From: Candidatus Sericytochromatia bacterium | GTDB taxonomy: Bacteria; Cyanobacteriota; Sericytochromatia; S15B-MN24; UBA4093 | DNA length: 64,000 nucleotides | Assembly: GCA_036676455.1 (NCBI GenBank) | Contig: JAKFCW010000021.1 | Span: 21,367-85,366 of the forward strand | Direction: 5' to 3' | Shown: one piece after another, positions 11,203 to 28,152 of the stretch | How the letters are laid out: every line of letters begins with the position of its first letter | Position numbering within the stretch: the stretch's first letter is position 1 | Translations under genes and position numbers: made by a program | The notes under the pieces: generated by a model | The model's input: the letters and a program-made list of their open reading frames with translations, nothing else | Told to the model about the DNA's origin: nothing | Database searches by the model: none

Positions 11203-11215
11203 TCCCAAACCCAAT

Positions 11216-11250
11216 CAGGCCCCTGAGCGAACGCTCAGGGGCCTGTTCTC
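11216..11250. terminator. Hairpin terminator between convergent nuoN and the hdeD-like gene
   Basis: Perfect inverted repeat caggcccctgagcg / cgctcaggggcctg (11216..11229 and 11232..11245), followed by gttctc. Confidence 0.6.
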
Positions 11251-11257
11251 ATGCGGA

Positions 11258-11884
11258 TCACTTCTCAATCCGCTCGCGCCGCTCCTCGGGAATCATCGTC
11301 GCGACCAGCCGCGGCTCGGCAACCGCCTTGAGGCTGCGCAGCCTCATGCCCATGGCAATCGAGGCGGCTCCCATGGCGATCGCGAAGACACCAATCAGCC
11401 ACGCGATCGCCAGCGCGCCGATCCCGGGGTTCAGCATGACCCCGAAGCCGAACAGGGCCGCGATCGCCCCGGTGATGCCCAGGGCCAGCGCCCCGTCATG
11501 CTGGCGCTGCACGATGGCCGCGACGATCTGCGCCACGCCGATCACCAGGGCGTAGGCGGCGATGAAGGCCAGAAGCACGATGCTGGTGATACCCGGGTAG
11601 AAGAGCGTGGTCAGACCGGCGGCGACCCCCGCGAGGCCCACCACGAGCTGAAGCCACCAGGGCGTTGCATTCGCCCGCCGCGGCCCCGCCGTCACCTGCC
11701 GGCCGCCGCGCGATCTCCACAGCCCCACCAGGGCGACCACGCCGTCCGTCAGGGCGAAGACTCCGAACAGGATCACCATGGTGGCCAGCGCCAGTCCCGG
11801 CCAGAGAATGGCCAGGAAGCCGAACGCGATGGCCAGAACCCCGCGCAGCGTCGGAACCCACCAGCGATCCGCGATTGCGAGCAT
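11258..11884 (-). CDS. HdeD-family (DUF308-like) membrane protein
   Basis: 208 aa with repeated glycine-rich TM helices. The N-terminus WWVPTLRGVLAIAFGFLAILWPG is typical of the HdeD family. Confidence 0.7.
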   Translation of the reverse strand: MLAIADRWWVPTLRGVLAIAFGFLAILWPGLALATMVILFGVFALTDGVVALVGLWRSRGGRQVTAGPRRANATPWWLQLVVGLAGVAAGLTTLFYPGITSIVLLAFIAAYALVIGVAQIVAAIVQRQHDGALALGITGAIAALFGFGVMLNPGIGALAIAWLIGVFAIAMGAASIAMGMRLRSLKAVAEPRLVATMIPEERRERIEK

Positions 11885-12060
11885 GAGGCCGCCTCCTTTC
11901 GCGTCATTGACGTGTCTCGCGAAGGAGTCTAGTCCAATCCGATCCCGATGACACCACGCAACGAGAGGACAGCGCTCAGGAAAGGGCTGACAGCCACTCC
12001 CGGCCGCTGTCCACTCCTCGAACGCCCAAGCTCAACCTCGGCGCTCGCCAAGCTCCAGGG

Positions 12061-14130
12061 TTACGCGTCGTCCGTCGCGCGCGGCAAGTAGAGCCGGAAG
12101 GTCGCCCCCGCCCCCTCACGGCTCTCGACCTCGATACGCCCCCCCTGGGCCTCGACGATGCCTTTCACGTAAGCGAGACCGATGCCGCTTCCCTTCTCTC
12201 GTTGCACCTCCGGACGATCCGATCGATAGAACTGCTCGAAGAGATGCCGCTTGTCCTCTGGGGTGAGGCCGATGCCTGAATCCTGCACCTCGATGACGAC
12301 GAAACCACCTTCCACGAAGCCGCGAAGGGCGACACTCCCGCCGGATGGCGTGTACTTGATCGCGTTCGAGACAAGGTTGTTCATGATTTGCTGGAAGCGA
12401 TCGGGATCCACCAGGACCGGTGGCAACTCAGATGGCTGGGCGTAGCCGATGCGCAGGCCCTTGTGTTCGGCCAGCGGTTGAAAGAAGGCCACCACGGCGG
12501 GAATCGCCTCCCCCAGGTCAACGGGCGCGAGGTTCAGCTTGATGTGGCCGGTCTGAAGGCGGGCATACTCGAGCAGCTCCTCGAGCATCGTCTGCATCTG
12601 GGAGCAAGCGGCCAGGATCTGCTGGATATAGGTGTTCTCGGCCTCGCTCAGGGGATGATCGGTATCCTGGAGCAGCTCGGCGTACCCCATGATGGCCGTC
12701 ATGGGAATCCTCAAGTCATGGCTGATCACGTTCAAGAAGTTGGCCCGCAGTTGATCGAGACGCTGCAGATTCTCGACCGTCGACTCCATGTCTTGATTGG
12801 CCAGGTAGAGCTCGTTGCGCTTCGTCTCGAGTTGCTGAATGGTGCGGGAAATCGTTTGAACGTACAGTTTCAATGCCTGACCGAAACGGTCCTGAGGTCC
12901 CCGCGGAGCGATCGAGACCGTGAGGTCTCCCTTGGCGATGCGCGCGAAGGCCTCAGACATGGCCTCCAGGTAGTCCCTGGCTTCCTGGAAGGCTCTCGTC
13001 ATCCGGGCGAACTCATCCTCACCCCGGACGGGGTCCGTCGCGGGAAGGAGGTCCCGGAGCCCGTCGACGTTCCCCTCCGAGATCGCTTTGCCAGCCATGG
13101 CCAAGCGTTCGATGGGCTGGATGGCCGAGGCGATGAGCGAGTAGAGCAAGATCGCGATCATGACCAGCCCCAACGCCCCGATGACGGCCAGCAGCTGCAC
13201 CAAGCGGAATACGGGCGTGAGGATCTCGGCACGATCCACCAGCATCGCGAGCGTCCACCCACCGGGTTGGATCGGGACCGAGAACATCCAGCTCTGATGC
13301 TGGTTGAAGGGATTGGTCACGACCTGGAACGCGGGGGTTGAAGCGCCCACCAGGCGAGTGAAGACACGCGCCTGATCGGGGAATTCGGAGAGGGGGCGCG
13401 TCAGAAAGCGTTCCTCGGGAGCCGTCACGTAGCGCCCCTGCGGGCTCAACATGACGAACATGGACGAGGCAAAGGGCTTGCTGTTTCGCAGGTTGCGCTC
13501 GAAGAGGCTCAGACTGCGGTCGACCCCCGCGATGCCCTTGAACTGACCGTCGATCAGGATGGGGCAGCCGTAAGAGCTCTGCAACTCATTGTTGTAGAAG
13601 TAGGGCTCAGTAACGAGGCATTCCGCCTGCCCCTTCAAGGAGTGCCAAAGCCCGATATCAAGGGTCTCGATATCGGTCGCGACGCCCAGCTTCAGGCCCT
13701 CAGGGCTCGGATTCCAGTAAGGAAGGAAGCGCCCGGTCTCGGGATCCGCTCCGGGCTTTCCTCTCGATCGATGATCCTGGCCGTCCGCATCGGGGGCGTA
13801 GAGCACCCACGTGCCGAAAAACTGCGGGTGGGAGACCTTCAGGTCGTAGAGGTACTTGAGGGTATCTTCGCGTTTCCCGAAGCCCACCGATTCTTGATAG
13901 ACGGTCAGGCTTCGGGCGAGCGTGAGCGACTCCTGGTTGATGGCCGCCACCTGCTCGGCCAAGGTGTCCACGGCGGCCTGGGCGTAGCGAATCGTGTCCT
14001 GCACCTTCGCCGCCAGGACGCTCAGCCCGACGACCAGGATCAACGCGAGGATCAGGAGGCTGACGGCGGCGCCGACCCTCAGGGTGATCTTGGACTTGAC
14101 GCTGCGCATGACCATGGCATCGATACCCAT
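12061..14130 (-). CDS. Sensor histidine kinase (TM, Cache-like periplasmic domain, HAMP, HisKA, HATPase)
   Basis: H-box NVISHDLRIPMTAIMGYAELL and ATPase boxes NLVSNAIKYTPSGG, DSGIGL, GSGIGLAYVKGIV. An N-terminal TM helix precedes a ~270-aa extracytoplasmic region, then a second TM helix. The start codon is ambiguous (M1, M6 or M8). Confidence 0.85.
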   Translation of the reverse strand: MGIDAMVMRSVKSKITLRVGAAVSLLILALILVVGLSVLAAKVQDTIRYAQAAVDTLAEQVAAINQESLTLARSLTVYQESVGFGKREDTLKYLYDLKVSHPQFFGTWVLYAPDADGQDHRSRGKPGADPETGRFLPYWNPSPEGLKLGVATDIETLDIGLWHSLKGQAECLVTEPYFYNNELQSSYGCPILIDGQFKGIAGVDRSLSLFERNLRNSKPFASSMFVMLSPQGRYVTAPEERFLTRPLSEFPDQARVFTRLVGASTPAFQVVTNPFNQHQSWMFSVPIQPGGWTLAMLVDRAEILTPVFRLVQLLAVIGALGLVMIAILLYSLIASAIQPIERLAMAGKAISEGNVDGLRDLLPATDPVRGEDEFARMTRAFQEARDYLEAMSEAFARIAKGDLTVSIAPRGPQDRFGQALKLYVQTISRTIQQLETKRNELYLANQDMESTVENLQRLDQLRANFLNVISHDLRIPMTAIMGYAELLQDTDHPLSEAENTYIQQILAACSQMQTMLEELLEYARLQTGHIKLNLAPVDLGEAIPAVVAFFQPLAEHKGLRIGYAQPSELPPVLVDPDRFQQIMNNLVSNAIKYTPSGGSVALRGFVEGGFVVIEVQDSGIGLTPEDKRHLFEQFYRSDRPEVQREKGSGIGLAYVKGIVEAQGGRIEVESREGAGATFRLYLPRATDDA

Positions 14131-14201
14131 AACTGCTTCAGACTACCACCGTCGATGGGGGCGCGCAGGGCTTCAGAAACCTCGGCGATCGGCAGAACAC
14201 C

Positions 14202-15098
14202 TCAGGCGTGGGCGGTCAACCACCCGGGGTTGCGGACGGTCCCATCGTGCGTCGGCGTGGTCTTGTACGCCTCGAAGCGGCCGTCCGAAGCGAATTCCGC
14301 GACCTTGCGCCGGAAGAACTCGGCCTCATCGGGTTCCATGGGCTCGAACGCCTCGAGGAGGTGCGCGGCCAGCTCGACCTCGCGCATGGACGGGCAGCCG
14401 ACGATCACGGACGTGACGGGCAGGCTCATGGCGTAGCGCAGGGCGTCCAGGGCCTTGATCCGGCCGGTTTCCAGCAGCTTGCCGTCCGCCAGGGGCCGCA
14501 TGCCGATCGCGCCGATGCCGCGCTCGACCAGAACGGGCAGCACCTGCTGCTCGAAGGAGCGGAACTGCGCGTCGAGGAGGTTGAGGGGCATGGCGACGGC
14601 GTCGAAGGGGAAGCCCATGTCTAGCATGCGCAGGTGGATGGCGGGGTCCTTGTGGCCTGCGAAGCCGATGTAGCGGATCTTGCCGGCCTTGCGGGCCTCG
14701 ACCAGGGCCTCCATGGCGCCGTCGGGTCCGAAGACGACGTCGGGGTCCTCGGGCCGGATGATCTCGTTGAGCAGCAGGAGGTCGAGGTGGTCGGTGCGGA
14801 GGCGCTTGAGACTCTGGTCCATCTGGGCGATCGCCGCCTTGCGGGTCTGGCCGTCTATTTTGGACATCAGGAAGACCCGGTCCCGGTAGCTGCCGCGCAG
14901 CGCCTCTCCCATCACGCGCTCGGACTCGCCCTCGTGGTAGTCCCAGGAATTGTCCATGAAGGTGAGTCCCGCCTCGACGGCCGCATGGATCATGCGCTGG
15001 CTCTCGCGGGACTCGCGGGGGAGGCCCAGGTGATAGCCGCCTAGCGCGAGCGCGCTGACGCGCTCGCCGGTGCTTCCCAGCGTTCGCGTGGTCTGCAT
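14202..15098 (-). CDS. Aldo/keto reductase family oxidoreductase
   Basis: 298 aa with LGSTGERVSALALGGYHLG, DNSWDYHEGESERVMGEAL and HLDLLLLNEI. Its ATG follows the cheB stop with a 0-nt spacer. Confidence 0.85.
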   Translation of the reverse strand: MQTTRTLGSTGERVSALALGGYHLGLPRESRESQRMIHAAVEAGLTFMDNSWDYHEGESERVMGEALRGSYRDRVFLMSKIDGQTRKAAIAQMDQSLKRLRTDHLDLLLLNEIIRPEDPDVVFGPDGAMEALVEARKAGKIRYIGFAGHKDPAIHLRMLDMGFPFDAVAMPLNLLDAQFRSFEQQVLPVLVERGIGAIGMRPLADGKLLETGRIKALDALRYAMSLPVTSVIVGCPSMREVELAAHLLEAFEPMEPDEAEFFRRKVAEFASDGRFEAYKTTPTHDGTVRNPGWLTAHA

Positions 15099-16154
15099 CT
15101 AACTGGGCCGGAAGATCCGCGCGAGCTCGGGCGCGATCCGCGGCAGGGGAAGGACCTTGTCGACCACGCCGGACTCGAAGACCGCGCGCGGCATGCCGTA
15201 GACCACGCACGATTCCTCGTCCTGGGCCCAGATGGGCGATCCGGCGCGCTTCATGGCGCCAGCACCGGCCGTCCCGTCATTGCCCATGCCGGTCATGATC
15301 AGGCCCAGGGCCCGCGGGCCGTAGCTCATGGCCACCGAAGCCATCATGACGTCGACCGAGGGCTTGTGCCAGGTCTTGGAATCCGAGGAATCAATCAGCT
15401 GCACGAACGACCCGCGCGGGTCCACCTTCACGGTGAGGTGCCAGCCGGCCGGGGCGATGTAGACGGTCGCGGGCTCCAGCTTCTCGCCTTGCTCGGCTTC
15501 CTTGACGCGGACGCAGCAGAGCTTGTCGAGGCGTTCGGCGAGCGAGCGCGTGAAGCCCGGAGGCATGTGCTGGACCACCAGGACCGGCACCGGGAAATCC
15601 GCGGGCAGCTGCGGCAACATGGCCTGAAGGGCCGGGGGGCCGCCGGTGGAGATGCCGATGGCGACCAGGTCCACCTTCTGGGTCAGGCGCGGCTCGCCGA
15701 TCCTGGGCGGCGGGGCGGTGGGCGTCGGCAAGGGCGGCAAGGGGCCGGTCCGGCGAGGACGGCTCGCTTCCTTGATCTTGGAGGTGAGCTCGTGCTGGAC
15801 CGTGAAGACGTCCAGCATCGAGGTCTCGGGCTTCGGCACGAAGTCGAAGGCACCCAGTTCCAGGGCCTGCAGGGTGGCGGAAGAGCCGTTCTGGGTGAGG
15901 GTACTCATCATGATGACCGGCACGGGGCGCTCGAGCATGATCCGCTTCAAGGCGGTCAAGCCATCCATCACCGGCATCTCGATGTCCATGGTGACGACGT
16001 CGGGGCGCAGCGCGGCGATCTGCTGGATGGCCTCGGCGCCGTTGGAGGCTTGGCCGACGATCTCGATTTCAGGCTCGGAGGTGATCATGCGCGTGATGGC
16101 CCGCCGCATGAACGGCGAGTCATCGACCACCAGCACCTTGATGGGCCTAGCCAT
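15099..16154 (-). CDS. cheB: Protein-glutamate methylesterase CheB (REC + methylesterase)
   Basis: REC domain (VLVVDDSPFMRR ... DVVTMDIEMPVMDG) plus esterase motifs GISTGGP, HMPPGFT and GMGNDG. Confidence 0.92.
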   Translation of the reverse strand: MARPIKVLVVDDSPFMRRAITRMITSEPEIEIVGQASNGAEAIQQIAALRPDVVTMDIEMPVMDGLTALKRIMLERPVPVIMMSTLTQNGSSATLQALELGAFDFVPKPETSMLDVFTVQHELTSKIKEASRPRRTGPLPPLPTPTAPPPRIGEPRLTQKVDLVAIGISTGGPPALQAMLPQLPADFPVPVLVVQHMPPGFTRSLAERLDKLCCVRVKEAEQGEKLEPATVYIAPAGWHLTVKVDPRGSFVQLIDSSDSKTWHKPSVDVMMASVAMSYGPRALGLIMTGMGNDGTAGAGAMKRAGSPIWAQDEESCVVYGMPRAVFESGVVDKVLPLPRIAPELARIFRPS

Positions 16155-17001
16155 GGCTGACCTTCTTCGCGGGGTCGAGCGCTTCGTAGTAGATGGCCTG
16201 CTTGTTGGATTTAAGCATGAAGTCCACCTCCAGGGACAAGAGTGACTCCGAGTGACCGATCAAGAGGTAGCCTCCGGGGGCCATGGCGCGATGGAAGATC
16301 TCGACCATGCGCTTCTGGGTGGCCTTGTCGAAGTAGATGAGCATGTTCCGGCAGAAGATCACGTCGAACGCCGAGAACCCGGGCCACTTCGCCATCTCGA
16401 AAAGGTTGCCCTGCTTGAACTTGACCCGGCCTGCCAGGCGGCTGCCCGCCCGGTACAGATCCCCCTCGGGGGTGAAGTACTTGGACAGGTACTTGCCGTC
16501 CGTGGCCCGGAACGCCGAGCGCGGGTAGAGACCCGTCTGGGCTTTCTGGATGACCGGCCCGTCGATGTCGACTCCCCAGATCTCCACCTGCCACCCGGCA
16601 AGCGAGACCGGCGCCTCGTCCATCAACATGGCTATCGTATAGGGTTCCTCCCCCGAAGAGCAAGGTGCGCTGAGGATTCTCAGCGTCCGGTTGGCCTTGC
16701 GCTTGACGATCTCGGGCAAGAGCTCGTTCTTGAAAAGCTCGAGCTGGTTCATCTCGCGGAAGAAGTAGGTCTCGTTGATGGTCACCAGCGGCATCAGATC
16801 GTTCCAGGCCTTGATGGATCCGAAGGCCATCTCCTTGAGCAGCATCTGGCTGAAAGCCGCCATCGAGGAGGCCCCATGCGAGCGGGCCACGGGAATCAAG
16901 CGGTCCTTGAGGAACTCGAGCTTGCTCTCCTCGAGCCGAATGCCGCAATAGCCCTGGATGACATCCCTGAGCTGCAGCAACTCGCCACGCGAGATTTCCA
17001 T
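16147..17001 (-). CDS. cheR: Chemotaxis protein methyltransferase CheR (copy 2)
   Basis: NETYFFRE, SAPCSSGEEPYTIAML and IFCRNMLIYF. Overlaps the cheB start by 8 nt. Confidence 0.9.
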   Translation of the reverse strand: MEISRGELLQLRDVIQGYCGIRLEESKLEFLKDRLIPVARSHGASSMAAFSQMLLKEMAFGSIKAWNDLMPLVTINETYFFREMNQLELFKNELLPEIVKRKANRTLRILSAPCSSGEEPYTIAMLMDEAPVSLAGWQVEIWGVDIDGPVIQKAQTGLYPRSAFRATDGKYLSKYFTPEGDLYRAGSRLAGRVKFKQGNLFEMAKWPGFSAFDVIFCRNMLIYFDKATQKRMVEIFHRAMAPGGYLLIGHSESLLSLEVDFMLKSNKQAIYYEALDPAKKVSHG

Positions 17002-17004
17002 GGA

Positions 17005-17841
17005 TCACTCCTTCATCGGGCGCCGGTAAAGCAAAGCTCCGGCAAGAGGTTGGGTTTCGAACGGATGGGGAACGAGGTGAAGCGTCTCACCTTCCCCGAC
17101 GAAGAGCAGGCCACCGGGGGCCAAGGCGTCGTGAAGCCGCTGCAGCAGGGCCTCGCGGAAGGCGTTGTCGAAGTAGATCATGACGTTGCGGCAGAAGATC
17201 ACGTCCCACGGGCCCGGAGGCGGCGGGGCCTTCAGGTTGTGGGGCATGAAGCGCACCAAGGCCTTGACGGCGGGCTTGACCCTGAGGGTGAGACCTTCCG
17301 ACTCGAAGTACGCCTCCCGGTAGCCCAGCGGCAGGTTCTCCAGCCGCCAGTCGCTGTAGATGCCGCTGCGGGCCTTCGCCAGAGCCTGCGTCGAGAGATC
17401 TGTGGCCAGGATCTCGGCATCGAAGCCCCGCGGTTGCTGCGCCAGGACGGTCATGGCGAGGGAGTAGGGCTCTTCGCCCGTCGAGCATGCCGCACTCCAG
17501 ATGCGCAGGCGGGGGCGGTCCAGGATGCCCGTTCGGCGGCGCGCCGCCAGCTCCGGCAACAAGCCGGCCAGGGCCTCGAACTGGGCCGGCATGCGGAAGA
17601 AGCTGGTCTCGTTGATGGTCATGCCGTCGACGACGGAGACTTTCACCTCGGGCGAAGTCCGGCACAGGCTCCAGAGCGCTCCCAGGTCCGCAGCCCCCCA
17701 TTCCTGGGCGAGCGCCTCGAGGCGGCGCTCCAGGAACGCGCGCTTGCTCTCAGGGTAGGCGAGGCCCGCTTCCTGGTAGAGCCAGTCGCGAATCGCCTGA
17801 AGCGCCAGCGCGTCAGACGGCGTGGTACGCCCCGGATTCAT
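17005..17841 (-). CDS. cheR: Chemotaxis protein methyltransferase CheR (copy 1)
   Basis: NETSFFRM, SAACSTGEEPYSLAMT and IFCRNVMIYF. Separated from CheR copy 2 by a 3-nt gap. Confidence 0.9.
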   Translation of the reverse strand: MNPGRTTPSDALALQAIRDWLYQEAGLAYPESKRAFLERRLEALAQEWGAADLGALWSLCRTSPEVKVSVVDGMTINETSFFRMPAQFEALAGLLPELAARRRTGILDRPRLRIWSAACSTGEEPYSLAMTVLAQQPRGFDAEILATDLSTQALAKARSGIYSDWRLENLPLGYREAYFESEGLTLRVKPAVKALVRFMPHNLKAPPPPGPWDVIFCRNVMIYFDNAFREALLQRLHDALAPGGLLFVGEGETLHLVPHPFETQPLAGALLYRRPMKE

Positions 17842-19972
17842 GGCGCTCCTTGCCCTCTCCCTCGTCGATCAGGGTCGCGATATCCAGGATCAGGGCCACT
17901 CGGCCATCTCCCAGGATGGTCGCGCCGGCCACCCCGCGAATCTCGCCCAGGTAGTCGCCCATCGACTTGATGACCACGTCCTGCTCGCCCTCGAGCGAAT
18001 CGACCACGAGGCCGATCTGCTTGTTCTCGCCCCCGACGATCACCACCGGCGAGTAGCGGCTGGCGCGCGGCTGGGAAGCGAGCCCGAAGGCGTTGGTCAG
18101 GCGGAACAGCGGCACCACCCGGTCGCGCAGCTGGATCACCTCGCGCTGGTTCACGGTCTTGATGTCCGAGTTCGCCACGCGGATGGATTCCTTGACGGCG
18201 TCCAGGGGAATCGCGAAGAAGTCACCGCCGGCCTTGATGAGGAGGGCCTTGGTGATGGCCAGGGTCAGCGGCAGCTTGATGATGAACTTCGAGCCCTCGC
18301 CGACCTTGGAGACCACCTGGATGGTGCCCTTGATCTTGCGGATATTCTGGTTGACCACGTCCATGCCGACGCCGCGGCCCGAGACGTCCGTGACCTTCTC
18401 GGCGGTGCTGAAGCCCGGGTGGAAGATGAACTGGAGGACGTCCATGTCGGAGTAGGTGCCGTCGGCCGTGGCGATGCCCATCTTGCGGGCCTTGGCGAGG
18501 ATCGTCTCGGGGTTGATGCCGCCGCCGTCGTCCGCGATGCTGATTACGATGTGGTTGCCCTCGCGGTGCGCGCCGAGGCGGATGGTGCCGAGGCGGGGCT
18601 TGCCGGCGGCCTCGCGGACGTCCGGGGCCTCGACGCCATGGTCGGCGGCGTTGCGCAGGAGGTGAACCAAGGGATCCTCCAGCTCCTCGACGACCGTCTT
18701 GTCGAGCTCGGTGTCCTGGCCGAAGATCTCCAGCTTGATTTCCTTGTTCATGGACTTGGCGAGATCGCGGATCAGGCGGGGGAACTTGCTGAAGACCCGT
18801 TCGACGGGGATCATGCGCACGCGCATGACCGTGAGCTGAAGCTCGCTCATGAGGCGGGCCACCTGGGCCACGGTCTCGTTGAGGGTGCCGACCAGCGGCT
18901 CGCGGTCGTAGCGGTTCTCGAGCTCGTTGCCCAGCCGCGCGAGGCGGGTATTGCCGATGACCAGCTCACCGACGACCTCCATGAGGAGATCCAGGCGCTC
19001 GACGTCGACGCGGATGCTCTGGGCCACGGCCGGGACCGCCTTCTTGGCAGGAGGCTCCTTTGCCGCCGGGACTGCCGCGGCGGCAGCTGGGGCGGCAGCC
19101 GGGGAAGCAGCCGGGGCCATGGCGGGCGCAGTCGTCGGAGCGGCCGCGCTCGCGCCTGGTGCCTCGGCGGCAGGCGGGGTGGGGTGGGCGGGACCGGGTG
19201 CATGCAGCACCATGATTGCATCGCTGCTGAAGGGCAGCAGGATGCTCAGGATGGGGGGTTCCGCGGTGGTGACGAACAGGGCGGTGCCGGAGACCGGGAA
19301 GGGGCCTGCGCCGGGCGCGTGCGGGGGAATCGGGGGGTCCGAGAGGATGCCGATGACCTCACCGAGGGAGTAGAGTTTCTCCATGACGGCGTGGTCGAGC
19401 ATCTCGTCGCCCCAGCGGCAGTCCGCGAGGTCGAGGGCGATCTCGTAGAGGTAGCGGGACTCGGCGTCCAGCTTGCCGAGGAGGGCCTGGTGCTTGGCGC
19501 TCATGCCCGCCATGTAGGCGGGGTCGAAGGGGTAGGGAGGGGCCTGGGTGCCGGAGGCCTCCGGGGTGGGCTCACCGTCGAGAATCTCCTTGAGCGCCTC
19601 GACGGTGGGGGTGATGTCGAGGCCGTTGCCGACGGTGCCGCCACCGAGTTCGACGAGCAGGGTTCCCAGGGCGTCGACGGACTCGAAGAGGACCTCGACC
19701 CCGCGTAGGGTCAGGGTGTGCTTGCCTGCGCGGATGGCTCCGAGCAGGTTCTCCATCTGGTGGGTGAGGGTGGCCACGGTCTTGAGACCGAGCATGCCGG
19801 CCGCCCCCTTGATGGAGTGGGCGCCCCGGAACATCTCGTTGAGCAGCTCGATGTCGAGCGACTCGCCGACCATGCCCTCGAGGGTCATGAGGCCCTGTTC
19901 GAGGGTGTCGAGGTGGCTGCGGGCCTCTTCGAGGAAGGCCTGGAAATCTTCCGCGTCGAACTCGAGACTCAC
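17813..19972 (-). CDS. cheA: Chemotaxis histidine kinase CheA
   Basis: HPt motif FRGAHSIKGAAGMLGL, a long Ala/Pro linker, kinase boxes HLLRNAADHGVE, DDGGGI and GRGVGMDVV, and a C-terminal CheW-like P5 domain. I place the start at a GTG that overlaps the cheY stop (GTGA). The ORF-track ATG at 20095 would run 127 nt into cheY with Arg-rich junk. Confidence 0.9.
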   Translation of the reverse strand: MSLEFDAEDFQAFLEEARSHLDTLEQGLMTLEGMVGESLDIELLNEMFRGAHSIKGAAGMLGLKTVATLTHQMENLLGAIRAGKHTLTLRGVEVLFESVDALGTLLVELGGGTVGNGLDITPTVEALKEILDGEPTPEASGTQAPPYPFDPAYMAGMSAKHQALLGKLDAESRYLYEIALDLADCRWGDEMLDHAVMEKLYSLGEVIGILSDPPIPPHAPGAGPFPVSGTALFVTTAEPPILSILLPFSSDAIMVLHAPGPAHPTPPAAEAPGASAAAPTTAPAMAPAASPAAAPAAAAAVPAAKEPPAKKAVPAVAQSIRVDVERLDLLMEVVGELVIGNTRLARLGNELENRYDREPLVGTLNETVAQVARLMSELQLTVMRVRMIPVERVFSKFPRLIRDLAKSMNKEIKLEIFGQDTELDKTVVEELEDPLVHLLRNAADHGVEAPDVREAAGKPRLGTIRLGAHREGNHIVISIADDGGGINPETILAKARKMGIATADGTYSDMDVLQFIFHPGFSTAEKVTDVSGRGVGMDVVNQNIRKIKGTIQVVSKVGEGSKFIIKLPLTLAITKALLIKAGGDFFAIPLDAVKESIRVANSDIKTVNQREVIQLRDRVVPLFRLTNAFGLASQPRASRYSPVVIVGGENKQIGLVVDSLEGEQDVVIKSMGDYLGEIRGVAGATILGDGRVALILDIATLIDEGEGKERHESGAYHAV

Positions 19973-20334
19973 TTGGCCATGGCTCCTTCGATCGCCGCGA
20001 TGACCCGGTCCTTCTGGAAGGGCTTGACGATGAAGTCCTTGGCCCCGGAGCGGACGGCTTCGACGATCATGTCCTGCTGGCCGACGGCGGAGCACATCAC
20101 GACGCGGGCCTGGGGGTTGGCGGCGACGATGGCCTTGACGGCTGCGATCCCATCCATCTCGGGCATCGTGATGTCCATGGTGACGACGTCGGGCTTGACC
20201 GCGGCGAACTGCTCGATCGCCTCGAGGCCGTTGCCCGCCTCACCGGCGACTTCCCAGCCTTTCTCGGCGATGATCTTGGCGAGGTTCTTCCGCATGAAGG
20301 GGGCGTCATCGACGATGAGGACCCGGATGCTCAT
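19969..20334 (-). CDS. cheY: Single-domain response regulator CheY
   Basis: 121 aa: MSIRVLIVDDAPFMRK ... DVVTMDITMPEMDG ... KDFIVKPF. It is the in-frame tail of ORF 19969..21177, and its ATG overlaps the cheX stop (TAATG). Confidence 0.92.
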   Translation of the reverse strand: MSIRVLIVDDAPFMRKNLAKIIAEKGWEVAGEAGNGLEAIEQFAAVKPDVVTMDITMPEMDGIAAVKAIVAANPQARVVMCSAVGQQDMIVEAVRSGAKDFIVKPFQKDRVIAAIEGAMAK

Positions 20335-20819
20335 TACTTGCTCTCCTTGGCGCGAATGCCGACGGTCAGGTGGATGGTGCCCGCCCCGAGGGCGAGCGGG
20401 ACGCTCATGGCGCGAACATGGGCCCAGGTGCCGCTGATCGAGGCGCCCATGAGGACCGAGGGGGGGGTGATGTCCGAGAAGCCGGCGAGCTGGTTGAGGA
20501 AGGTGCGGGCGTTCCCGGCGATCATGTTGGCGAGCTCGGACAGGGCGGAGATGGCCATGTCGTCGAGCTCGGAGACCTCTTCCATCATCATGATGCCGGC
20601 GATCGCCTTGGCCGTGTACATGTTCATGCCGAAGTTGACATGCCCGGTCAGGTCGCCGGTGACACCCACCTGCACGTTGACCTCTTGGAGGGGGATGGTG
20701 GGACCCATTTGGAAGGTCGGTGCCCCGCGGGTGGGGGTCTCGCTCAGCACCTCTTGCAGGACCTGCTCGGCGGCCTGCCCGAAGGCGCGGACGAAATCGA
20801 GACCGGTGGAAGTCGACAT
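20334..20819 (-). CDS. cheX: CheX-like CheY-P phosphatase
   Basis: 161 aa from M15, which has an AAGGA Shine-Dalgarno just upstream. It carries one near-match to the CheC/CheX/FliY site S-x3-E-x2-N-x(~21)-P (SALSELANMIAGNARTFLNQLAGFSDITPP). Confidence 0.75.
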   Translation of the reverse strand: MSTSTGLDFVRAFGQAAEQVLQEVLSETPTRGAPTFQMGPTIPLQEVNVQVGVTGDLTGHVNFGMNMYTAKAIAGIMMMEEVSELDDMAISALSELANMIAGNARTFLNQLAGFSDITPPSVLMGASISGTWAHVRAMSVPLALGAGTIHLTVGIRAKESK

Positions 20820-20897
20820 AGGCTTTCCTTTCACTCCTCGCCACCCTGCCCCGGATGGCAAACAGGCGGTTTCCCGCCCCGAATTTGCTCCGCGGAC

Positions 20898-22793
20898 CTA
20901 ATCCAGGCTTTGGCCTTGTTCGGCCTTGGCGATGACCTGTTCGATCATCTGGGTGAGGGCCGGGTTGCGATCGACGTCGTTGAGATGGCGGGCGCCGAGG
21001 CTCTTTCCGACCATGGCCATGACGGAGGCGCGCTGGTCGGTGGTGGCCAGGGCGATCGCCAGGTAGTCGAGGCCGAGCCAAGAGCCCTGCAGGTTCTGGA
21101 TGGCCGTCTTGTAGCGCTGGACGCCTGCGCGCCCCGGGAAGGCCTCCATGAGGCGGCGGATGTCGGGGGCCGTGCATTCACCCTGGCGGCCCCAGTCGGA
21201 CAGGGCCTCCATCAGGAAGGCCAGCGCCTGCTCTTCGTCCAGGACGGCGTCGAAGGCGATGTCCTCGAACTCCGCTTGCGAGATCAAGGTGAACTCGTCG
21301 AAGATCTTGCGCAGGCGGAAGTAGCGGTAGATGTGGGTGACCTCCGGGCAGCGCTCGCGGATGTGGAACAGTTCGAGGCGCTCGACGGCGCGCGAGATCT
21401 CGGCGCTGTTGCGCACGAAGGCCTCCAGCCAGATGGCGTCGTCGGTGGTCCGGGCGAACTCGGGGGCCAGCACCTCGATGTCGACCTGTCGCAGGCCGGC
21501 CTCGCGCAGGAGCTGCACGGCCTGCTCGTAGCGCTTGACCGCCGCTCGTTCGGGCAGGACTTCCATCAGCTTCTGGGCCTTGGGCAGGGTGAGGCGACCC
21601 TCGAAGACCCGGCTGCCCAGCTCGCCGATCATGGAGGCGACGGCGGCGTCGGACTCGGATTCCATGTGGGGAAGCAGGAACTGGTCGACTTCCTCTCCCT
21701 TGAGGCCGGAGTCCATGAAGGCGCGCACGCCGCGCACGTAGCGCTTGAGAGCGGCGGTGGTGGGGGCCCATTCGCGCAGTTGCACCAGGGTCAGGCGGGT
21801 GACGACCCTGCCGGCCTCCTGGAGGCCTTGAACGGCCTCGTTCAGCCACTCGAGGTCCTCGGAGTGGCGGGCGAAGGAGGTGACGAAGGCGTCGAACTCG
21901 TCGAAGCGGATCTGGCGCTCGTCGAGGATCTTGAAGGCCTGGAGGTAGCGTTTGACCGCGGTCCGGGTGGCGAGCTCGCTGAAGAGGAAGTCGAGGTCGG
22001 CGCTCTTGTAGCCCTCGCGGCCCCGCTGGGCCAGCAGGGCCCCGATCTCGCCGATGGTGGCGGCGGATTCCTCGTCCTTGGCGAAGCGCACGATCACCGC
22101 GTCCAGGTCGTCCCAGGAGAGGTGGTCGTTGGCGCGGAAGGCGCGGATGGCCTGCAGGAAGCATTCGCAGGCGTTGTGATCGCGCAGGCTCAGCGTCAGG
22201 TTCGAGAGCGAGGCCAGGGAGAGGGGGCGCTGCAAGGGGGCGAGGCCGTCGGCGAGCTGGAAGATCAGCTCGAAGGCAGGATGGCCCCAATTGGTGCGCA
22301 GGAGGGTGTAAAGGCCGGTCCATTCCTCGTCGGTTTCCGGGGAGACGAGGTCGAGGAGCTGCTCGAAGCAGCCGAGCAGGCGGATCGTGGAGGCCATGGA
22401 GCCCCAGCCGGCCAGCATCTCGGAGCTGCACGGGCAGCCCTTGCGGCTCAGCAGGGCGAAGAGCTCGGCGAGGAGGTTGAAGGCCTGGGGCGTGGAGGCC
22501 AGCGGGAGCAAGGGGTCCAGGGAGAGGCCCGCGGGCATGCGCTCGCCGAAGGTTCGGGTCAGGAGGTCCTGGAGGGCCAGGGCGCGCTGGCTGCTGTCGC
22601 GCAGGACGGCTTCCAGGGACTCCGAGGTGGAGACCTTGGGGGCTTCGTGGAAGACAGGTGCCTGCTTACGTCCTCCGCGCGGCGGCTTCGGCGTGGCGGG
22701 CGGGGTTTCGGATAACCATTCCGAGGCGCTCTTGAGGACCTCGTTCATTTGCTGAGGAACGTTTGACAGCCACTCGCTGAAACCTTGCCGCAT
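20898..22793 (-). CDS. Unrecognised 631-aa cytoplasmic protein built from ~70-residue tandem repeats; first gene of Che-I operon
   Basis: The motif [AG][VL][KQ]RY or HIYRY has its Tyr at residues 283, 352, 422, 491 and 561, a 69-70 aa period. Degenerate copies lie at F212 and F143. No TM helix or signal peptide is visible. The amino-acid composition is normal, unlike the antisense ORF 20370..22715. Confidence 0.75.
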   Translation of the reverse strand: MRQGFSEWLSNVPQQMNEVLKSASEWLSETPPATPKPPRGGRKQAPVFHEAPKVSTSESLEAVLRDSSQRALALQDLLTRTFGERMPAGLSLDPLLPLASTPQAFNLLAELFALLSRKGCPCSSEMLAGWGSMASTIRLLGCFEQLLDLVSPETDEEWTGLYTLLRTNWGHPAFELIFQLADGLAPLQRPLSLASLSNLTLSLRDHNACECFLQAIRAFRANDHLSWDDLDAVIVRFAKDEESAATIGEIGALLAQRGREGYKSADLDFLFSELATRTAVKRYLQAFKILDERQIRFDEFDAFVTSFARHSEDLEWLNEAVQGLQEAGRVVTRLTLVQLREWAPTTAALKRYVRGVRAFMDSGLKGEEVDQFLLPHMESESDAAVASMIGELGSRVFEGRLTLPKAQKLMEVLPERAAVKRYEQAVQLLREAGLRQVDIEVLAPEFARTTDDAIWLEAFVRNSAEISRAVERLELFHIRERCPEVTHIYRYFRLRKIFDEFTLISQAEFEDIAFDAVLDEEQALAFLMEALSDWGRQGECTAPDIRRLMEAFPGRAGVQRYKTAIQNLQGSWLGLDYLAIALATTDQRASVMAMVGKSLGARHLNDVDRNPALTQMIEQVIAKAEQGQSLD

Positions 22794-23138
22794 GGTGATC
22801 CCCTAATCGACGCGCGAATGTCCCTCGACCCAGTATAGGACCCGGCGAGACGGGCCAGGTAGGGACAAATATCCCTTTCTACATACCCCGAAAGCCGGCG
22901 TCCAACCGCTCCTGCCCCGAATCATCAGGGTTTCCCCGATCCTAGGGGGCTGCGAAGCGCTCCGAACGGGCATGACGCCGCATTTCCAGATCTCTACCCC
23001 TACATCGTGCGGGTAAACCTTAAAGTTAGCATCCGGGGGAAATACGGAACACGCCAGGGGGCTAGCCCCCCATTTTCGCCCATGCGGCCGAAGGCAAAAC
23101 GGACGTTCCTACGTAGGATGGACACGGAGGTGGTCGCG

Positions 23139-24482
23139 ATGCAAGAGAACGAGCCGTATCCCTTCGTCGAGGCGTTTGGGCGGGTGCGCGCGCGGACCGA
23201 GGCGATCGCCGCCATGGTCCACCCGGACGCCTACCGCGCGAGGCCGATTCCCCTGAGGCTGCCGTTCGTCTTCTACGACGGGCACCTGTCGGCCTTCAAC
23301 TGGAACACGCTCTTCCGCAAGACGCTGGGCGTGCCCAGCTTCAACCCGGCGTTCGATGCGCGCTTCGGGCGCGGCATCGACCCCGAGGCGCAGGGCGCCG
23401 GGGCCCAGGGGGCCGATCCGGGCGAGGCCGGCTGGCCGTCGCGCGCGGAGATCCAGGCCTACAAGCTCGAAGTCGACGCCCGGCTGCTGGCCTTCCTCGA
23501 GGACTTCGACCCGCGGCGCCCACCGCATCCATGGCTCTCTGAGGGCCGGGTGCTGCACATCATGCTCGAGCACGAGCTGATGCACCAGGAGACCCTGCTC
23601 TACATGGTGCATCAGCTTCCCGCCGAGCATAAGATTCCGCCTTCCGGGTGGGGCACCGGCCCCCGGACGGCGGAGTCCGGGGCAGCCACTACGGGCGAGT
23701 CCCTTTCGGTCGCGATCCCCGTGGGCCCCGCTTGCCTCGGAATCCATTCGAGCGACGTGCCCTTCGCCTGGGACAACGAGCGGCCATGTCACCTGGTCGA
23801 CGTCCCGGCCTTCGCGATCGACGCGACGCCCTGCACCAACGGTCAATTCCTGGAGTTCGTGGAGGCCGGCGGCTACCAGCGCCCCGAGTTCTGGCGGCCC
23901 GCCGCATGGGAGCGGCTGCCGCGCGAATCGTCCGCGCATCCGCATTTCTGGCGGCAAAGCGACAGCGGCTGGGTTTTCCGCGGGCTCTTCGGTGACCTGC
24001 CCTTGCCGCTCGACTGGCCCGTGCTGGTCAGCCAGGCCGAGGCCGAGGCCTACGCCCGCTTCAAGGGCAAGCGCCTGCCCACCGAAGCCGAATGGCAGCG
24101 CGCCGCTTTTGGCGACGACATGGTGCGGCCCTATCCATGGGGCTGGGAGGCCCCCACGCCCGAACATGGCAACTTCGACTTCCAGCAGCTCTCCCCGGCT
24201 CCCGTGGGCACCCACCCCAGAGGCGCCACTCCTCTGGGCGTCCATGACCTGCTGGGCAACGGCTGGGAATGGACCTGCACTCCGTTCGCCCCCTTCGAGG
24301 GCTTCGAGGCCGATCCCAGCTACCCCGGCTACTCCGCCGACTTCTTCGACGGCAAGCACGTCGTCATGAAGGGCGGCTCATGGGCCACGGACGCCAAGCT
24401 GCTGCGGAGATCCTTCCGCAACTGGTTCTACGGCCACTACCCCTACGCCTACGCCACCTTCCGCTGCGTCACGTCCGGCTGA
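23139..24482 (+). CDS. egtB: EgtB-type sulfoxide synthase (DinB_2 + FGE-sulfatase domains), ergothioneine biosynthesis
   Basis: EHELMHQETLLYM motif in the N-terminal domain. The C-terminal domain carries FAWDNERPCHLVDVPAFAID, TNGQFLEFVEAGGY, GNGWEWT and KGGSWAT. The start is placed at the ATG preceded by GGAGG (23126..23130). egtD lies nearby. Confidence 0.8.
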   Translation: MQENEPYPFVEAFGRVRARTEAIAAMVHPDAYRARPIPLRLPFVFYDGHLSAFNWNTLFRKTLGVPSFNPAFDARFGRGIDPEAQGAGAQGADPGEAGWPSRAEIQAYKLEVDARLLAFLEDFDPRRPPHPWLSEGRVLHIMLEHELMHQETLLYMVHQLPAEHKIPPSGWGTGPRTAESGAATTGESLSVAIPVGPACLGIHSSDVPFAWDNERPCHLVDVPAFAIDATPCTNGQFLEFVEAGGYQRPEFWRPAAWERLPRESSAHPHFWRQSDSGWVFRGLFGDLPLPLDWPVLVSQAEAEAYARFKGKRLPTEAEWQRAAFGDDMVRPYPWGWEAPTPEHGNFDFQQLSPAPVGTHPRGATPLGVHDLLGNGWEWTCTPFAPFEGFEADPSYPGYSADFFDGKHVVMKGGSWATDAKLLRRSFRNWFYGHYPYAYATFRCVTSG

Positions 24483-24487
24483 TCCCC

Positions 24488-26956
24488 TCAAACGCCCGAG
24501 CCCAGCCGGGCGCGCGGCGCGGCTTCGCGCTCCACAAGGAGCGCGTCGGCGCGCCCCTCTTGAAAGAAGGCCATCACCGCAATCAGGCCATGGGCCTGCT
24601 GCTGCAAGTCCCGCGACATCTGCCCCAGCTGCCCGACCGCCTGCACGATTTGCTCGGCCGCCTTTCTCTGCTCGGCCGTCGCGGTCGAAACCTGATGGGT
24701 CATCCCGTTCATGGTGCCCACGGCGGTCATGATCTGCGACGAGCCCAGCGCTTGCTCGCGCGTCGCCAGCGTCACCTGCTGCGTGAGCTGATTCATGGAG
24801 GCCACGGCCCCGGTGATCTGCCGCGCGACGGCGCTCTGCTCACTCGTCCCATGGGCGATCTGCCCCATGAGCTGCGTCACGGCTCCCACGGAGCTGACGA
24901 TCTCGTTGAGGGCCTCACCGGCCGTCCTGGCCAGGCTCATGCCCTCCCGGATGGCAGCATCCCCTTGATACGTCCGCGTGACGGCCTGCTCGGTCTCCTG
25001 CTGGATGCCCCTGATGAGCCCGGCAATCTCGCCCGTGGCCTTCGCGGAACGCTCGGCCAGCTTGCGCACCTCGTCGGCGACCACGGCGAAGCCCCGCCCA
25101 TGTTCACCGGCCCGCGCCGCCTCGATCGCGGCGTTGAGGGCCAGCAGGTTGGTCTGGTCGGCGATGTCGTCGATCACCGCGACGATGGCGCCGATCTCTT
25201 CCGAGCTGCGGCCCAGACGCTCCATGACGTGGACCACGCCCTGCATGGCCTCGGAAATGGTACCCATGCCGTCGACCGTCTTCGAGACCGCGCTACGCCC
25301 ACCTTGAGCCACCTCCGTCGCCCGCTCGGTCAGTCGGCTGGCCTCGGTGACCGTGAGCGCGACCTGCTGGACCGATGCCGCCATCTGCTCGATGGACGCC
25401 GACGTCTGGCTGACGGCATCCGACAGGACGCCGACGTTGCCCGCCACCTGCTGGATGCTCGTGCCCATCTCCTCGATGCTCGACGAGGTCTCGTCCACCG
25501 ACGCGGCCAGCGTCAAGGAATTCCCCGACACCTGGGCCAGCGAGGCCGCCATCTCCTCGATGCTCGACGAGGTGGACTGGGTGGCCGCGTCCGCCTGCTC
25601 GGCGGCCGCGGCCACCGACTGGGCCGACGCGCGGACCTGGGTGATGACCTGGCGCCATTTCCGCGCCATCTCCGAGATCGCCACGCCGAACTGATCCCGC
25701 TCGCTCTGAGGCACGATGTCGCGCGACAGGTCTCCCCGGCTCATGGAGGCGGCCACGTCCGCGACGTCATGCAGGTAACGCCGCATCTGCTCGAAGGAAT
25801 GGGCCAATTCCCCGAGTTCGTCCTGCCGGCGAAGGGTGATCGCACGGTCCAGCACGCCTTCCGCGATCACGTGGGACGCCTCGGTCAGCTGCATGAGCGG
25901 AGCCAGGACCCGCCGGTGGATGGTCAAGGCGGCGAAGACCACGATCGCCACGCTCAAGAGGCCGCCGAGCATGACCAGCGCCATGTCCCGCATCCCCTCG
26001 CGCTCCGCGGCTGCCGCCGAGGCAACCGTCTCGGCGCTGACCGCATCGGCGATCGCCAGGATGGAATCGATCCCCCGGGTGGCCTCCGCAACCCAGCTCG
26101 TCCCGTCGAGGGGGTAGGCAGTCCCGGCATTGCCTGCCGCGTAGACCGAGGTTCGGATCTGCTGGAAATGCCCCAGGAACTCGCGCTGCATCACCTCGAT
26201 CGCTTGCTTCGTGGGCGAATCCGCGGGCAGGTCCCGGGTCAGCAGCATCAAGGTTTCCAGGTTGCGATCGACGATCCCCCGGAAAGCCACCAGGTTCAGC
26301 TCGACCTGGCCCGAGATGGGCTGCTTGCCGGCAACCAGGGTGCCGATGGTCGCGCGCTCCCGGCCCGCGAACTCGCTGGCCTGGAAGACGATCTCCTTGA
26401 TCTGGAGGTTGTTGCGGTAGGCCTCGTCCAGAGGGGACGAAGCCACGAAGGCATCCCGGCGCATCTGGGCGAGCGCATCGATGAAGGACGACATCGTCGC
26501 CACCCACTTGGGTCCCGTGAGAGTCCCGCCACCCGTCTCGAACTTGCGATCGGCCTCACGGCGAGCCTGCTCTAGCGCTTCGCGCTGGCGCTCCACCTCG
26601 GCCAGGCTGATGGCCAGCGGATGGACCGTGCGCGCTCCGCGGATCCGACGGGCCCGCTCGAGTGCCTCGGCGAAGTGCCGGTCGCCCGTCTCGCGCAGCG
26701 TCGCGATGCGCCGCCGCGTCTCCGTGGTGACCGCCGTCGACTGGGACAGGGCCGTGGCCGTCACCCCGCGCTCGACGGCTTCGGCCGCGTTCGCCTGGAT
26801 GACCGCATCCGCCAGATCGTTCGCCTCGCGGATCCAGGCGGCCTTCTGGTAGCTCCTGACCGTCACGACGCCCCCTTGCAGCAGCGCCGCGAAGGTGACG
26901 ACGGCCATCATGCCGAACAAGAGCAGTAGCAGGTAACGGATCTTCAATCGTGACAT
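24488..26956 (-). CDS. Methyl-accepting chemotaxis protein with large NIT-like periplasmic sensor and HAMP
   Basis: 822 aa from [15 protein letters not shown]. Order is TM1, a ~280-aa helical sensor with two ER-G-containing half-repeats ([13 protein letters not shown] and [13 protein letters not shown]), TM2, HAMP, then a signalling hairpin [41 protein letters not shown]. Confidence 0.88.
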
Positions 26957-27090: not shown

Positions 27091-28152
27091 TCAGCTCAGC
27101 ACCGGTGCGTCGTCGGCGCGCCGCAAGAGCATGAGCCCGAAGGACTCGGCGGGATCCATCCAGCAGGCCTGCAAGGCGAAGCCGCGCGAGGCCAGCCATG
27201 CGCCTAGCTCGAGGGGATCGAACTTCCGGGAGATCTCGGTTAATATCCCCTCGCCCTGCCGGAAGCGGAAGCGCTCGCCGGCCACGTTCACGACCTGATC
27301 CTCCCGGCTGACCAGCACCATCTCGATCTGGTGCTCCGGCAAGACGTACTCCGCCCGGTGCCGCCAGTGCTCCAGGCGAAAATCCGCTCCCAGCTCGCGG
27401 TTCAGGCGTCGCAGGAGGTTGAGGTTGAACGCGGCTGTCACCTCCTGCGCATCGTTGTAAGCGGCATGGATGATCGGCGCGGGTTTGCCGGCATGCGCCC
27501 GGCGGTCGAAGCCCAGGAGCAGGTGGTTTCCCGGGGACATCGCGCCGCGCAGGCCTGCGAAGAAGGCTTCTTGCTGGATCGGCGCGAGGTTGCCGAGCGT
27601 GCCGCCCAGGAAGATCACAAGCCTCTCCGTGCAATCGGGCAGCAAGCCGAGCGCCTCGTCGAAGCTTGCGGCCAAGCCCAGCACGCGCATGCCGGGGTAG
27701 CTGGAAGCAAGCGACTGGGCCGTCTGAGCGAGCATGCTTCGGCTGATGTCGATGGGGATGTAGGTGAGGGGGCGATCGCCCGCATGAAAGGCATCCAGCA
27801 GCAAGCGGGTCTTCACCGAGGAGCCGCTGCCCAGCTCGACCAGCTGCCTCACCTCAAGGCTATCCGCGAGCAAGGGGGCGAGCTGACGCAGCAGGGCCGT
27901 CTCGGTCCGCGCGGGGTAGTACTCGCTCAGAGCGGTGATCTGCTCGTAAAGCGCGGAGCCGCGCGCGTCGTAGAGGTAAGCTGGGGGAATCGAGCGCCGC
28001 ACGGGGTCACAGAGCCCCTCGAGGACCTCGCGGCGCATCCTCTCGCGCAGGTCCTCTCCCGGAACGGCGATCAGGTCCAGCTGGCAGCTTCCTTCCAGGA
28101 AGTCCCGCACGGCCCTGCGAAGCGAGCTTTCGGTGATTCGTGAGACAGCCAT
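27091..28152 (-). CDS. egtD: L-histidine N-alpha-methyltransferase EgtD
   Basis: [56 protein letters not shown] and FLGGTLGNL. The true start may be internal (M39). Confidence 0.82.

Follow-up and report, generated by a model that had tools for sequence, protein, structure and literature searches.

At the head of a chemotaxis operon of an uncultured Candidatus Sericytochromatia bacterium stands a gene for a 631-aa repeat protein, and the locus raises the question of what such a protein does in a chemosensory pathway. The operon lies on the minus strand of a 64,000-nt stretch of contig JAKFCW010000021.1 (positions 21,367 to 85,366; hereafter, the window), and the gene (hereafter, gene X, encoding protein X) occupies window positions 20898..22793, including the stop codon. 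A preliminary description of this DNA had put X forward as a candidate scaffold or input module of CheA, because the operon encodes a CheA with a P5 domain and neither CheW nor a receptor. Here, the gene neighbourhoods, repeat architecture and predicted structure of X and its homologs were compared. The most persistent neighbour of X is cheX, the gene for a CheC-family phosphatase of phosphorylated CheY (CheY-P), and not cheA, and gene X is inherited together with cheX and often coupled to it in translation. We hold with confidence that X is an accessory protein dedicated to chemotaxis, whatever its exact function. More tentatively, and as the reading that we favour, X may be a solenoid that binds proteins, has CheX as its partner and positions or regulates the dephosphorylation of CheY-P at the signalling complex.

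Gene neighbourhood and distribution of X

Gene X begins with ATG and has a GC content at third codon positions (GC3) of 0.91, as in the real genes of the window (~67% GC), and the open reading frame (ORF) reported earlier thus does represent a gene for a 631-aa protein. Its stop codon is 78 nt from the ATG of cheX (20819), the spacing originally given for this junction. Because the gene upstream of X is divergent, the transcription unit in the window begins with X, which is indeed the first gene of the minus-strand che operon.

Gene context was compared across 15 distinct loci (L007 and L010 are the same locus and were counted once). Gene X is immediately upstream of cheX in 12 of them, and che or CheY-type genes are found near X in 13, so the association with chemotaxis genes on which the earlier proposal was built holds across the family. 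Two operon types were distinguished. In the window type (n=5: the window, L001, L005, L009 and L015), the gene order is X-cheX-cheY-cheA-cheR-cheR-cheB, and an aldo/keto reductase gene follows cheB wherever the contig reaches that far (L015 stops at cheB). This cluster is non-flagellar and adjoins the ergothioneine genes egtD/egtB. No cheW ortholog was found within 10 kb of the operon in the window, L001, L005 and L009, nor among the called genes of the 9-kb contig of L015. In the flagellar type (n=6: L006, L007, L008, L011, L016 and L017), the order is cheW-X-cheX-cheY-cheA-cheR-cheB, and the che genes interrupt a motAB-fliLMNOPQR-flhBA cluster between its flhB and flhA. Here cheW is directly upstream of X in all six loci, with a gap of 3-9 nt in three, and the stop of X overlaps the start of cheX by 4 nt in L007, L008 and L016. 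A gene for a methyl-accepting chemotaxis protein (MCP) immediately precedes cheW only in L006 among the flagellar-type loci; MCP genes are also near X in the window, L001 and L005. Neither cheC nor cheD was detected in any X locus, and these loci thus encode no known partner of CheX.

The adjacency of X and cheX is kept down to ~30% identity of X, at which the CheX proteins are still 45-64% identical. Between the window and flagellar types, X retains ~30% identity, CheX 61-64%, CheY 74-77%, CheA 54-58% and CheB 56-62%, indicating that X diverges far faster than its che partners. The smallest arrangement was seen in L013 (X ~30% identity), a lone X-cheX pair with 37 nt between the genes and no further che gene within 10 kb. 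At that locus (L013 positions 10001-13377) the pair is followed by a convergent gene for an HD-GYP + PilZ protein, a possible link to cyclic di-GMP signalling.

The family is very small. A word-indexed search of 5.8 billion clusters gave 12 full-length homologs with 61-98% identity, none of them named, and in an exhaustive HMMER profile search of 1.84 billion representatives at 50% identity the family amounted to only 10 clusters. Scanning the GTDB species representatives yielded two X loci, both from Candidatus Sericytochromatia bacterium (71% and 80% identity). The sister, flagellar-type subfamily (P0015 and 14 relatives, ~28-31% identity to X) was found by using distant members as the query; when the mixed alignment A2 was used in a word-indexed protein search, these distant members were not recovered, and a metagenome scan with P0018 found nothing. 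All X loci have a GC content of 64-68%, and the family was traced to Candidatus Sericytochromatia-like genomes only, all of them uncultured. In two metagenome-assembled genomes (L006, DATNQI010000069.1, and L016, DATNQJ010000434.1), the NCBI proteins are labelled as the oxygenic cyanobacteria Pantanalinema sp. and Stenomitos sp. These contigs carry complete flagellar and che clusters, which makes the labels doubtful; the two genomes are probably Sericytochromatia-like and wrongly labelled. Sericytochromatia are the basal, non-photosynthetic sister class of the oxygenic cyanobacteria, and in the literature on their chemotaxis and flagella we found no description of such a protein or of che genes.

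Repeat architecture and predicted structure

Protein X (~70 kDa) is acidic, with an isoelectric point (pI) of 5.07 for the whole protein and 5.13 for the repeat array alone (52 K+R against 67 D+E). It has no transmembrane segment (maximum KD19 = 1.12), as noted before, and no enzymatic domain was detected by a Pfam scan. Three regions can be recognised. Residues 1-56 (22626..22793, minus strand), with a predicted local distance difference test score (pLDDT) below 50, comprise one or more N-terminal amphipathic helices carrying the duplicated SEWLS motif noticed at the outset (FSEWLS and ASEWLS), followed by a Pro/Lys/Arg-rich disordered linker. The hydrophobic moment of the N-terminal helix is 0.45-0.76 across the family. 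The linker bears the conserved segment RGGRKQAPVFHE (residues ~39-51, window ~22641-22679, minus strand), which family alignments showed to be nearly invariant in the window-type, CheW-less homologs and absent in the flagellar-type subfamily, which has cheW upstream. Residues 57-192 (22218..22625, minus strand) form a helical region (helices at 60-187 in the AlphaFold2 model) that is hairpin-like in the model and has no detectable homology to the repeats by hhalign. Residues 193-611 (20961..22217, minus strand), about two thirds of the protein, are made of six ~70-aa units (193-263, 264-332, 333-402, 403-471, 472-541 and 542-611; U2 to U7), as delimited by hhalign, autocorrelation and the AlphaFold2 model.

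Each unit consists of an A hairpin, marked by [AG][VL][KQ]RY, and a B hairpin with an acidic/hydrophobic first helix, of ~35 aa apiece. The tyrosines of AVKRY, ALKRY, AVKRY, HIYRY and GVQRY are at residues 283, 352, 422, 491 and 561, exactly as first read from the translation. To measure the periodicity, the BLOSUM62 autocorrelation was compared with that of 500 shuffles, for which the 95th percentile of the maximum was 3.66. The strongest signal was at a lag of 139 (z=9.6), and lags of 69 and 70 (z=3.8-3.9) were barely over the shuffle threshold. Slices of the 13-sequence family alignment A1 were used as unit profiles and compared by hhalign, and units U2-U7 aligned in register (U3-U5 E=3e-12, U2-U3 2e-6, U5-U7 4e-6, U2-U7 7e-6 and U4-U5 8e-5), with U6 being the weakest unit (U4-U6 E=5e-4). 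The dominant super-period of 139 aa reflects the likeness among U3, U5 and U7. At the level of single hairpins, A (odd) hairpins matched A and B (even) hairpins matched B, with no significant match between A and B, so the 70-aa period is that of an A+B double hairpin. The ~70-aa periodicity of the preliminary description thus stands, by autocorrelation above the shuffles and by the in-register units. Its term "strict" fits the regular spacing and does not fit units that are only 10-34% identical with a dominant period of 139 aa. A degenerate copy around F143 was likewise proposed and is not supported: hhalign comparisons of residues 124-192 all gave E>0.1, though the model continues hairpins there, and U0/U1 (residues 56-192) matched the other units only at E>0.005 and out of register.

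No tandem repeat was found at the DNA level in gene X, which together with the low identity between units indicates that the array is ancient. The same number of units aligns end to end in homologs at 28% identity, so the array is older than the divergence of the family. The most conserved core spans residues 277-494, and 61 columns are invariant across the subfamilies. Within the core, R282, R351, R421 and R490 make up a ladder of invariant arginines. Members can be recognised by a signature of [AG]-[VL]-[KQR]-R-[YL] where the long A helix begins, together with the block H-[IL]-R-E-R-C-P-[ED]...Y-R-Y-F-R-L, both of which are present in X.

The AlphaFold2 model based on A1 had a mean pLDDT of 84 and a predicted template modelling score (pTM) of 0.56. 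Residues 1-56 were disordered and the rest was all-alpha, in agreement with the earlier view of X as an all-helical repeat protein. The model has four helices per unit (short-long, short-long) and ~14 helix-turn-helix hairpins of ~35 aa. A three-unit core (264-471) predicted from a 22-sequence alignment reached a pLDDT of 90.3 and a pTM of 0.81.

Neither profile nor structure searches assigned X to a family, consistent with the preliminary description. Pfam-A hmmscan gave no significant family, and no HEAT-type, TAL_effector, PPR or TPR match even at E<=10 for X and five divergent homologs. NCBIfam and PADLOC scans were also without a significant match, and short matches to HEPN (E=0.027) and NOVOEXAE (0.057) were discarded. 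A sequence-profile search against the PDB returned only a PPR protein with a non-significant E of 1.3. A possible resemblance of the 70-aa unit to the SAM-like N-terminal domain of tyrosine recombinases (T..Y...L..F) found no support in any search and was dropped. When the full model was searched against the PDB with Foldseek, the top matches were TALE-like proteins (BurrH 4cja, E=1.7e-4; others to 3e-2), at template modelling scores (TM) of 0.14-0.17 and root-mean-square deviations >30 A. A TALE-like identity was rejected: the similarity was judged to be that of generic hairpin repeats (TM ~0.16), and the matches were lost in the core-only search, which gave no PDB structure at E<0.1 (best E=0.17, TM 0.41, designed helical repeat proteins). 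Foldseek against viral structures (BFVD) gave nothing. Like the TALE-like proteins (BurrH/Bat, TAL effectors), X is predicted to consist of hairpins of ~33-35 aa in tandem, each pairing a short helix with a long one, wound into a superhelix; it differs from them in being acidic, in its A/B alternation, in repeats of 10-34% identity, and in having neither an RVD-like loop pattern nor a Pfam match. It also shares tandem bi-helical solenoid repeats with the HEAT/HEAT_PBS class, but this feature is generic to many solenoid classes and insufficient for membership. Taken as modelled, X is an alpha-solenoid of generic appearance whose class has no representative among the characterised families. It defines a protein family that is new and very small, with a solenoid architecture that is confidently predicted and unmatched. 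Such a solenoid is more likely to be a protein-binding platform than a nucleic-acid binder.

Possible roles in the chemotaxis pathway

Phosphatases of the CheC family often work together with a partner or at a particular site: FliY is part of the switch complex, and the unrelated CheZ is recruited by CheA-short. CheD, a small alpha/beta deamidase, is the partner encoded beside CheC-family phosphatase genes in Bacillus, Thermotoga and Borrelia, and it is non-catalytic toward CheY-P, as X would be in our favoured reading; X differs in being an all-alpha solenoid of 70 kDa that resembles CheD in neither sequence nor fold, and no cheD accompanies it. We know of no partner of CheX outside spirochaetes. 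In Borrelia, CheX and CheD form an activity-enhancing complex (PMC5318424).

Helical-repeat proteins of chemosensory clusters offer further precedents. The haloarchaeal HEAT_PBS protein OE2401F, from an F1-type che/fla region, is indispensable for switching and has CheD and CheF as binding partners (Schlesner et al. 2009, PMC2666748). Like X, it has bi-helical repeats and no other domain, is encoded in a che region and is lineage-restricted (PMC2666748); in contrast to X, which has no such match, it matches Pfam HEAT_PBS/HEAT, belongs to another domain of life and has CheF rather than CheX as its neighbour. Cpc7 of Myxococcus xanthus, a HEAT-repeat protein of the Che7 cluster, binds CheY7 according to PMC11514114, which cites Darnell 2014. 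As described in that source, Cpc7 is, like X, an alpha-solenoid from a chemosensory cluster, and it acts by protein-protein interaction with a single-domain response regulator (PMC11514114). Cpc7 is a member of the HEAT/phycocyanobilin-lyase-like family with a non-motility output, whereas X has no HEAT signature and occurs in a flagellar-type pathway.

The gene context across the 15 loci, on which the functional argument chiefly rests, together with these helical-repeat precedents, the common partnering of such phosphatases and the absence of cheC and cheD, leads us to favour a partnership of X with CheX, whose binding we infer from gene order only. X would be a lineage-restricted, acidic accessory of a CheX-type (F1-like) chemotaxis pathway, with its solenoid serving as a platform for the CheX dimer. 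The conserved core (277-494) and the tethered N-terminal amphipathic helix, in what are putative roles, could position the phosphatase, or control it, at the complex of CheA, CheW and receptor or at the membrane. By analogy, X might be to CheX what CheD is to CheC/CheX, or CheA-short to CheZ. In the window-type operon, cheW would have been lost and X kept.

Several observations weigh against a partnership with CheX. In L012 (X 31%), gene X is detached and lies ~6 kb from a flagellin-cheY-MCP-cheW-cheX-cheA-cheR-cheB cluster. The JGI 3300056388 contig has X (41%, a C-terminal fragment) and no cheX in 3.7 kb; X is followed there by two tiny ORFs, a CheY-like REC protein, a ParA/CbiA-type ATPase and an Hsp70/MreB-like protein. 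No cheX or other che gene is on the 7.6-kb contig of L014, which has the most divergent X (~24%), next to a histidine kinase and an RR-HDOD-HD protein. The charge of the N-terminal helix varies between subfamilies, which makes a common docking target uncertain. Finally, all X loci come from one narrow lineage, so the conserved synteny is partly shared ancestry. In L012, a 743-aa protein encoded upstream of cheW was considered as a second X and turned out to be an ordinary 4HB-HAMP MCP.

The strongest competitor of the CheX partnership, which we nevertheless consider unlikely, is that X acts on the output side as a partner of CheY-P, that is, as an effector or adaptor from CheY to the motor or another target, in the manner of Cpc7 or OE2401F. 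Bi-helical repeat proteins that act with CheY or downstream of it are the precedents for such a role, and a CheY-type REC gene is found 1-4 kb from X in 13 of the 15 loci, including the JGI contig without cheX. X also has a tethered N-terminal amphipathic peptide and a flexible linker, an architecture similar to that of the CheY-P-binding peptides of FliM, FliY and CheZ. However, the charge of this helix is not conserved and no FliM_N pattern was seen by eye, the X-cheX pair of L013 has no cheY within 10 kb, and genes for the canonical targets of CheY-P, FliM and FliY/FliN, are already present in the flagellar-type loci.

We find it improbable that X is the CheA scaffold or input module of the preliminary description, replacing CheW, and perhaps the receptor too, in coupling signals to the kinase. 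The window-type operon does have a cheA with P5 and no cheW, either within 10 kb in four loci or among the called genes of L015; RGGRKQAPVFHE is conserved in this CheW-less type only; and X is kept whenever the operon has cheA. Yet cheW is directly upstream of X in the six loci of the sister subfamily, so X did not arise as a substitute for CheW, and the X-cheX pair of L013 has neither cheA nor cheW within 10 kb. Although X shares operons with CheA, it is all-alpha, unlike the SH3-like beta-barrels of CheW and P5, and it gave no match to the CheW-like family PF01584 in a scan that detected both the P5 of CheA and the two CheW proteins of a second che cluster in the window. The premise itself is correct for the window operon, in which a Pfam scan found neither cheW nor an MCP gene; an MCP gene is nevertheless present 1.7 kb upstream of X and the two cheW genes are ~30 kb away, with MCP genes near X in L001 and L005 as well. 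With cheW preceding X in the sister subfamily, a receptor gene close by and cheX as the most constant neighbour, the step from a missing CheW and receptor to a CheA scaffold is not supported.

A bolder version of the CheX partnership, to which we give slightly less credence still than to a CheW substitute, is that X and CheX form a new CheY-P phosphatase module. The solenoid would recruit or position CheX, and possibly CheY-P via the N-terminal helix, at the signalling array, and RGGRKQAPVFHE would provide part of CheW's coupling to CheA in the CheW-less operon. If so, a chemosensory core complex would be built without an operon-encoded CheW.

It is very unlikely that X is a passenger with no chemotaxis role that stays beside cheX through shared ancestry, as might be argued from the confinement of all known members to one GC-rich lineage and from two or three divergent members that are not adjacent to cheX. 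The adjacency has survived in both the flagellar-cluster and egtD/egtB settings, through rearrangements (cheW lost, cheR moved) and in a lone X-cheX pair, and the stop-start overlaps and strong conservation of the core, with its 61 invariant columns across subfamilies, also speak against a passenger. Least probable of all is a nucleic-acid-binding solenoid (TALE- or PPR-like) regulating che/fla genes: the BurrH-led Foldseek matches (4cja, E=1.7e-4), the non-significant PPR match (E=1.3) and 35-aa hairpins with an invariant Arg/Lys opening the long helix of the A hairpins would fit it, but TM is 0.14-0.17, the core model has no match at E<0.1, X is acidic (pI 5.07 overall, 5.13 array) with no Pfam TAL_effector or PPR at E<=10, and the A and B hairpins differ, which leaves no one-repeat-one-base register.

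X joins known kinds of protein, namely helical-repeat chemosensory accessories and partners of CheC-family phosphatases, and is not a categorically new system. As a partner of CheX, a solenoid inherited together with cheX would be an accessory component of a new type for chemotaxis, and X would be the third independent case, following haloarchaeal OE2401F and Myxococcus Cpc7, of a helical-repeat protein recruited into che operons. These loci also afford an initial view of flagellar chemotaxis in Sericytochromatia, with an impact limited by the narrow distribution (10 clusters) and the uncultured hosts.

The window operon and its surroundings

Downstream of X, all genes of the window operon are on the minus strand. 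The 161-aa CheX (20334..20819) was identified by Pfam CheX (7.8e-18) and NCBIfam CheX_Thtogales (7e-23) and holds S-x3-E-x2-N. A CheC-family motif of the form D/S-x3-E-x2-N-x22-P had no match in CheX at that exact spacing, and no claim is made on the spacing. The start of cheY (19969..20334, 121 aa; Pfam Response_reg) overlaps the stop of cheX by 1 nt (TAATG), and the GTG start of cheA (17813..19972; Pfam Hpt, dimerisation, HATPase_c and CheW-like P5 domains) overlaps the stop of cheY (GTGA). Both CheY and CheA had their best NCBIfam scores to the haloarchaeal CheY/CheA models. Pfam also identified cheR1 (17005-17841), cheR2 (16147-17001) and cheB (15099-16154). The last gene of the window-type operon encodes the aldo/keto reductase (14202-15098), which was found by tblastn at 66-76% identity in the same place in L001, L005 and L009 and by Pfam Aldo_ket_red in L001; it abuts cheB with zero gap and may be a redox-linked member of the operon. 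A scan of positions 14000-24600 for sigma-70 promoters and terminators gave no sites.

The two tandem cheR genes (16147-17841, minus strand) encode proteins with 31-35% mutual identity. Where a CheR1-like copy is present in flagellar-type loci it is upstream of cheW (L008, L016), pointing to a rearrangement of the operon. Downstream of the operon, a HAMP histidine kinase gene (12061-14130, minus strand) encodes a sensor part that shares 35% identity across 457 aa with the dCache MCP encoded just before cheW in L006 (6802-8163), so a sensor module is common to a kinase and a chemoreceptor.

On the other side of X, a divergent EgtB-like gene (23139-24482, plus strand; DinB_2 + FGE-sulfatase) lies between X and the MCP gene (24488-26956, minus strand; 822 aa, HAMP + MCPsignal by Pfam), which is 1.7 kb upstream of X, and an EgtD-like gene (27091-28152, minus strand) flanks the MCP gene on its other side. 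The MCP-EgtB-X arrangement is the same in L005 (77% identity); in L001, an EgtD-like gene directly precedes X and the MCP gene is elsewhere.

Two further ORFs of the window, 46595-48217 (minus strand, 540 aa) and 50594-51970 (minus strand, 458 aa), have coding-like GC3 and no Pfam match. A second, Wsp-like che cluster occupies 52348-59310 on the plus strand, with genes for CheW (52348-52821), CheR-TPR (within 52614-54302), a second CheW (54263-54802), a CHASE3 MCP (within 53971-56262), CheA-REC (56259-58259) and CheB (58252-59310). It is followed on the same strand by the gene for a hybrid kinase of 949 aa that contains four REC domains and an Hpt domain (59199-62048).

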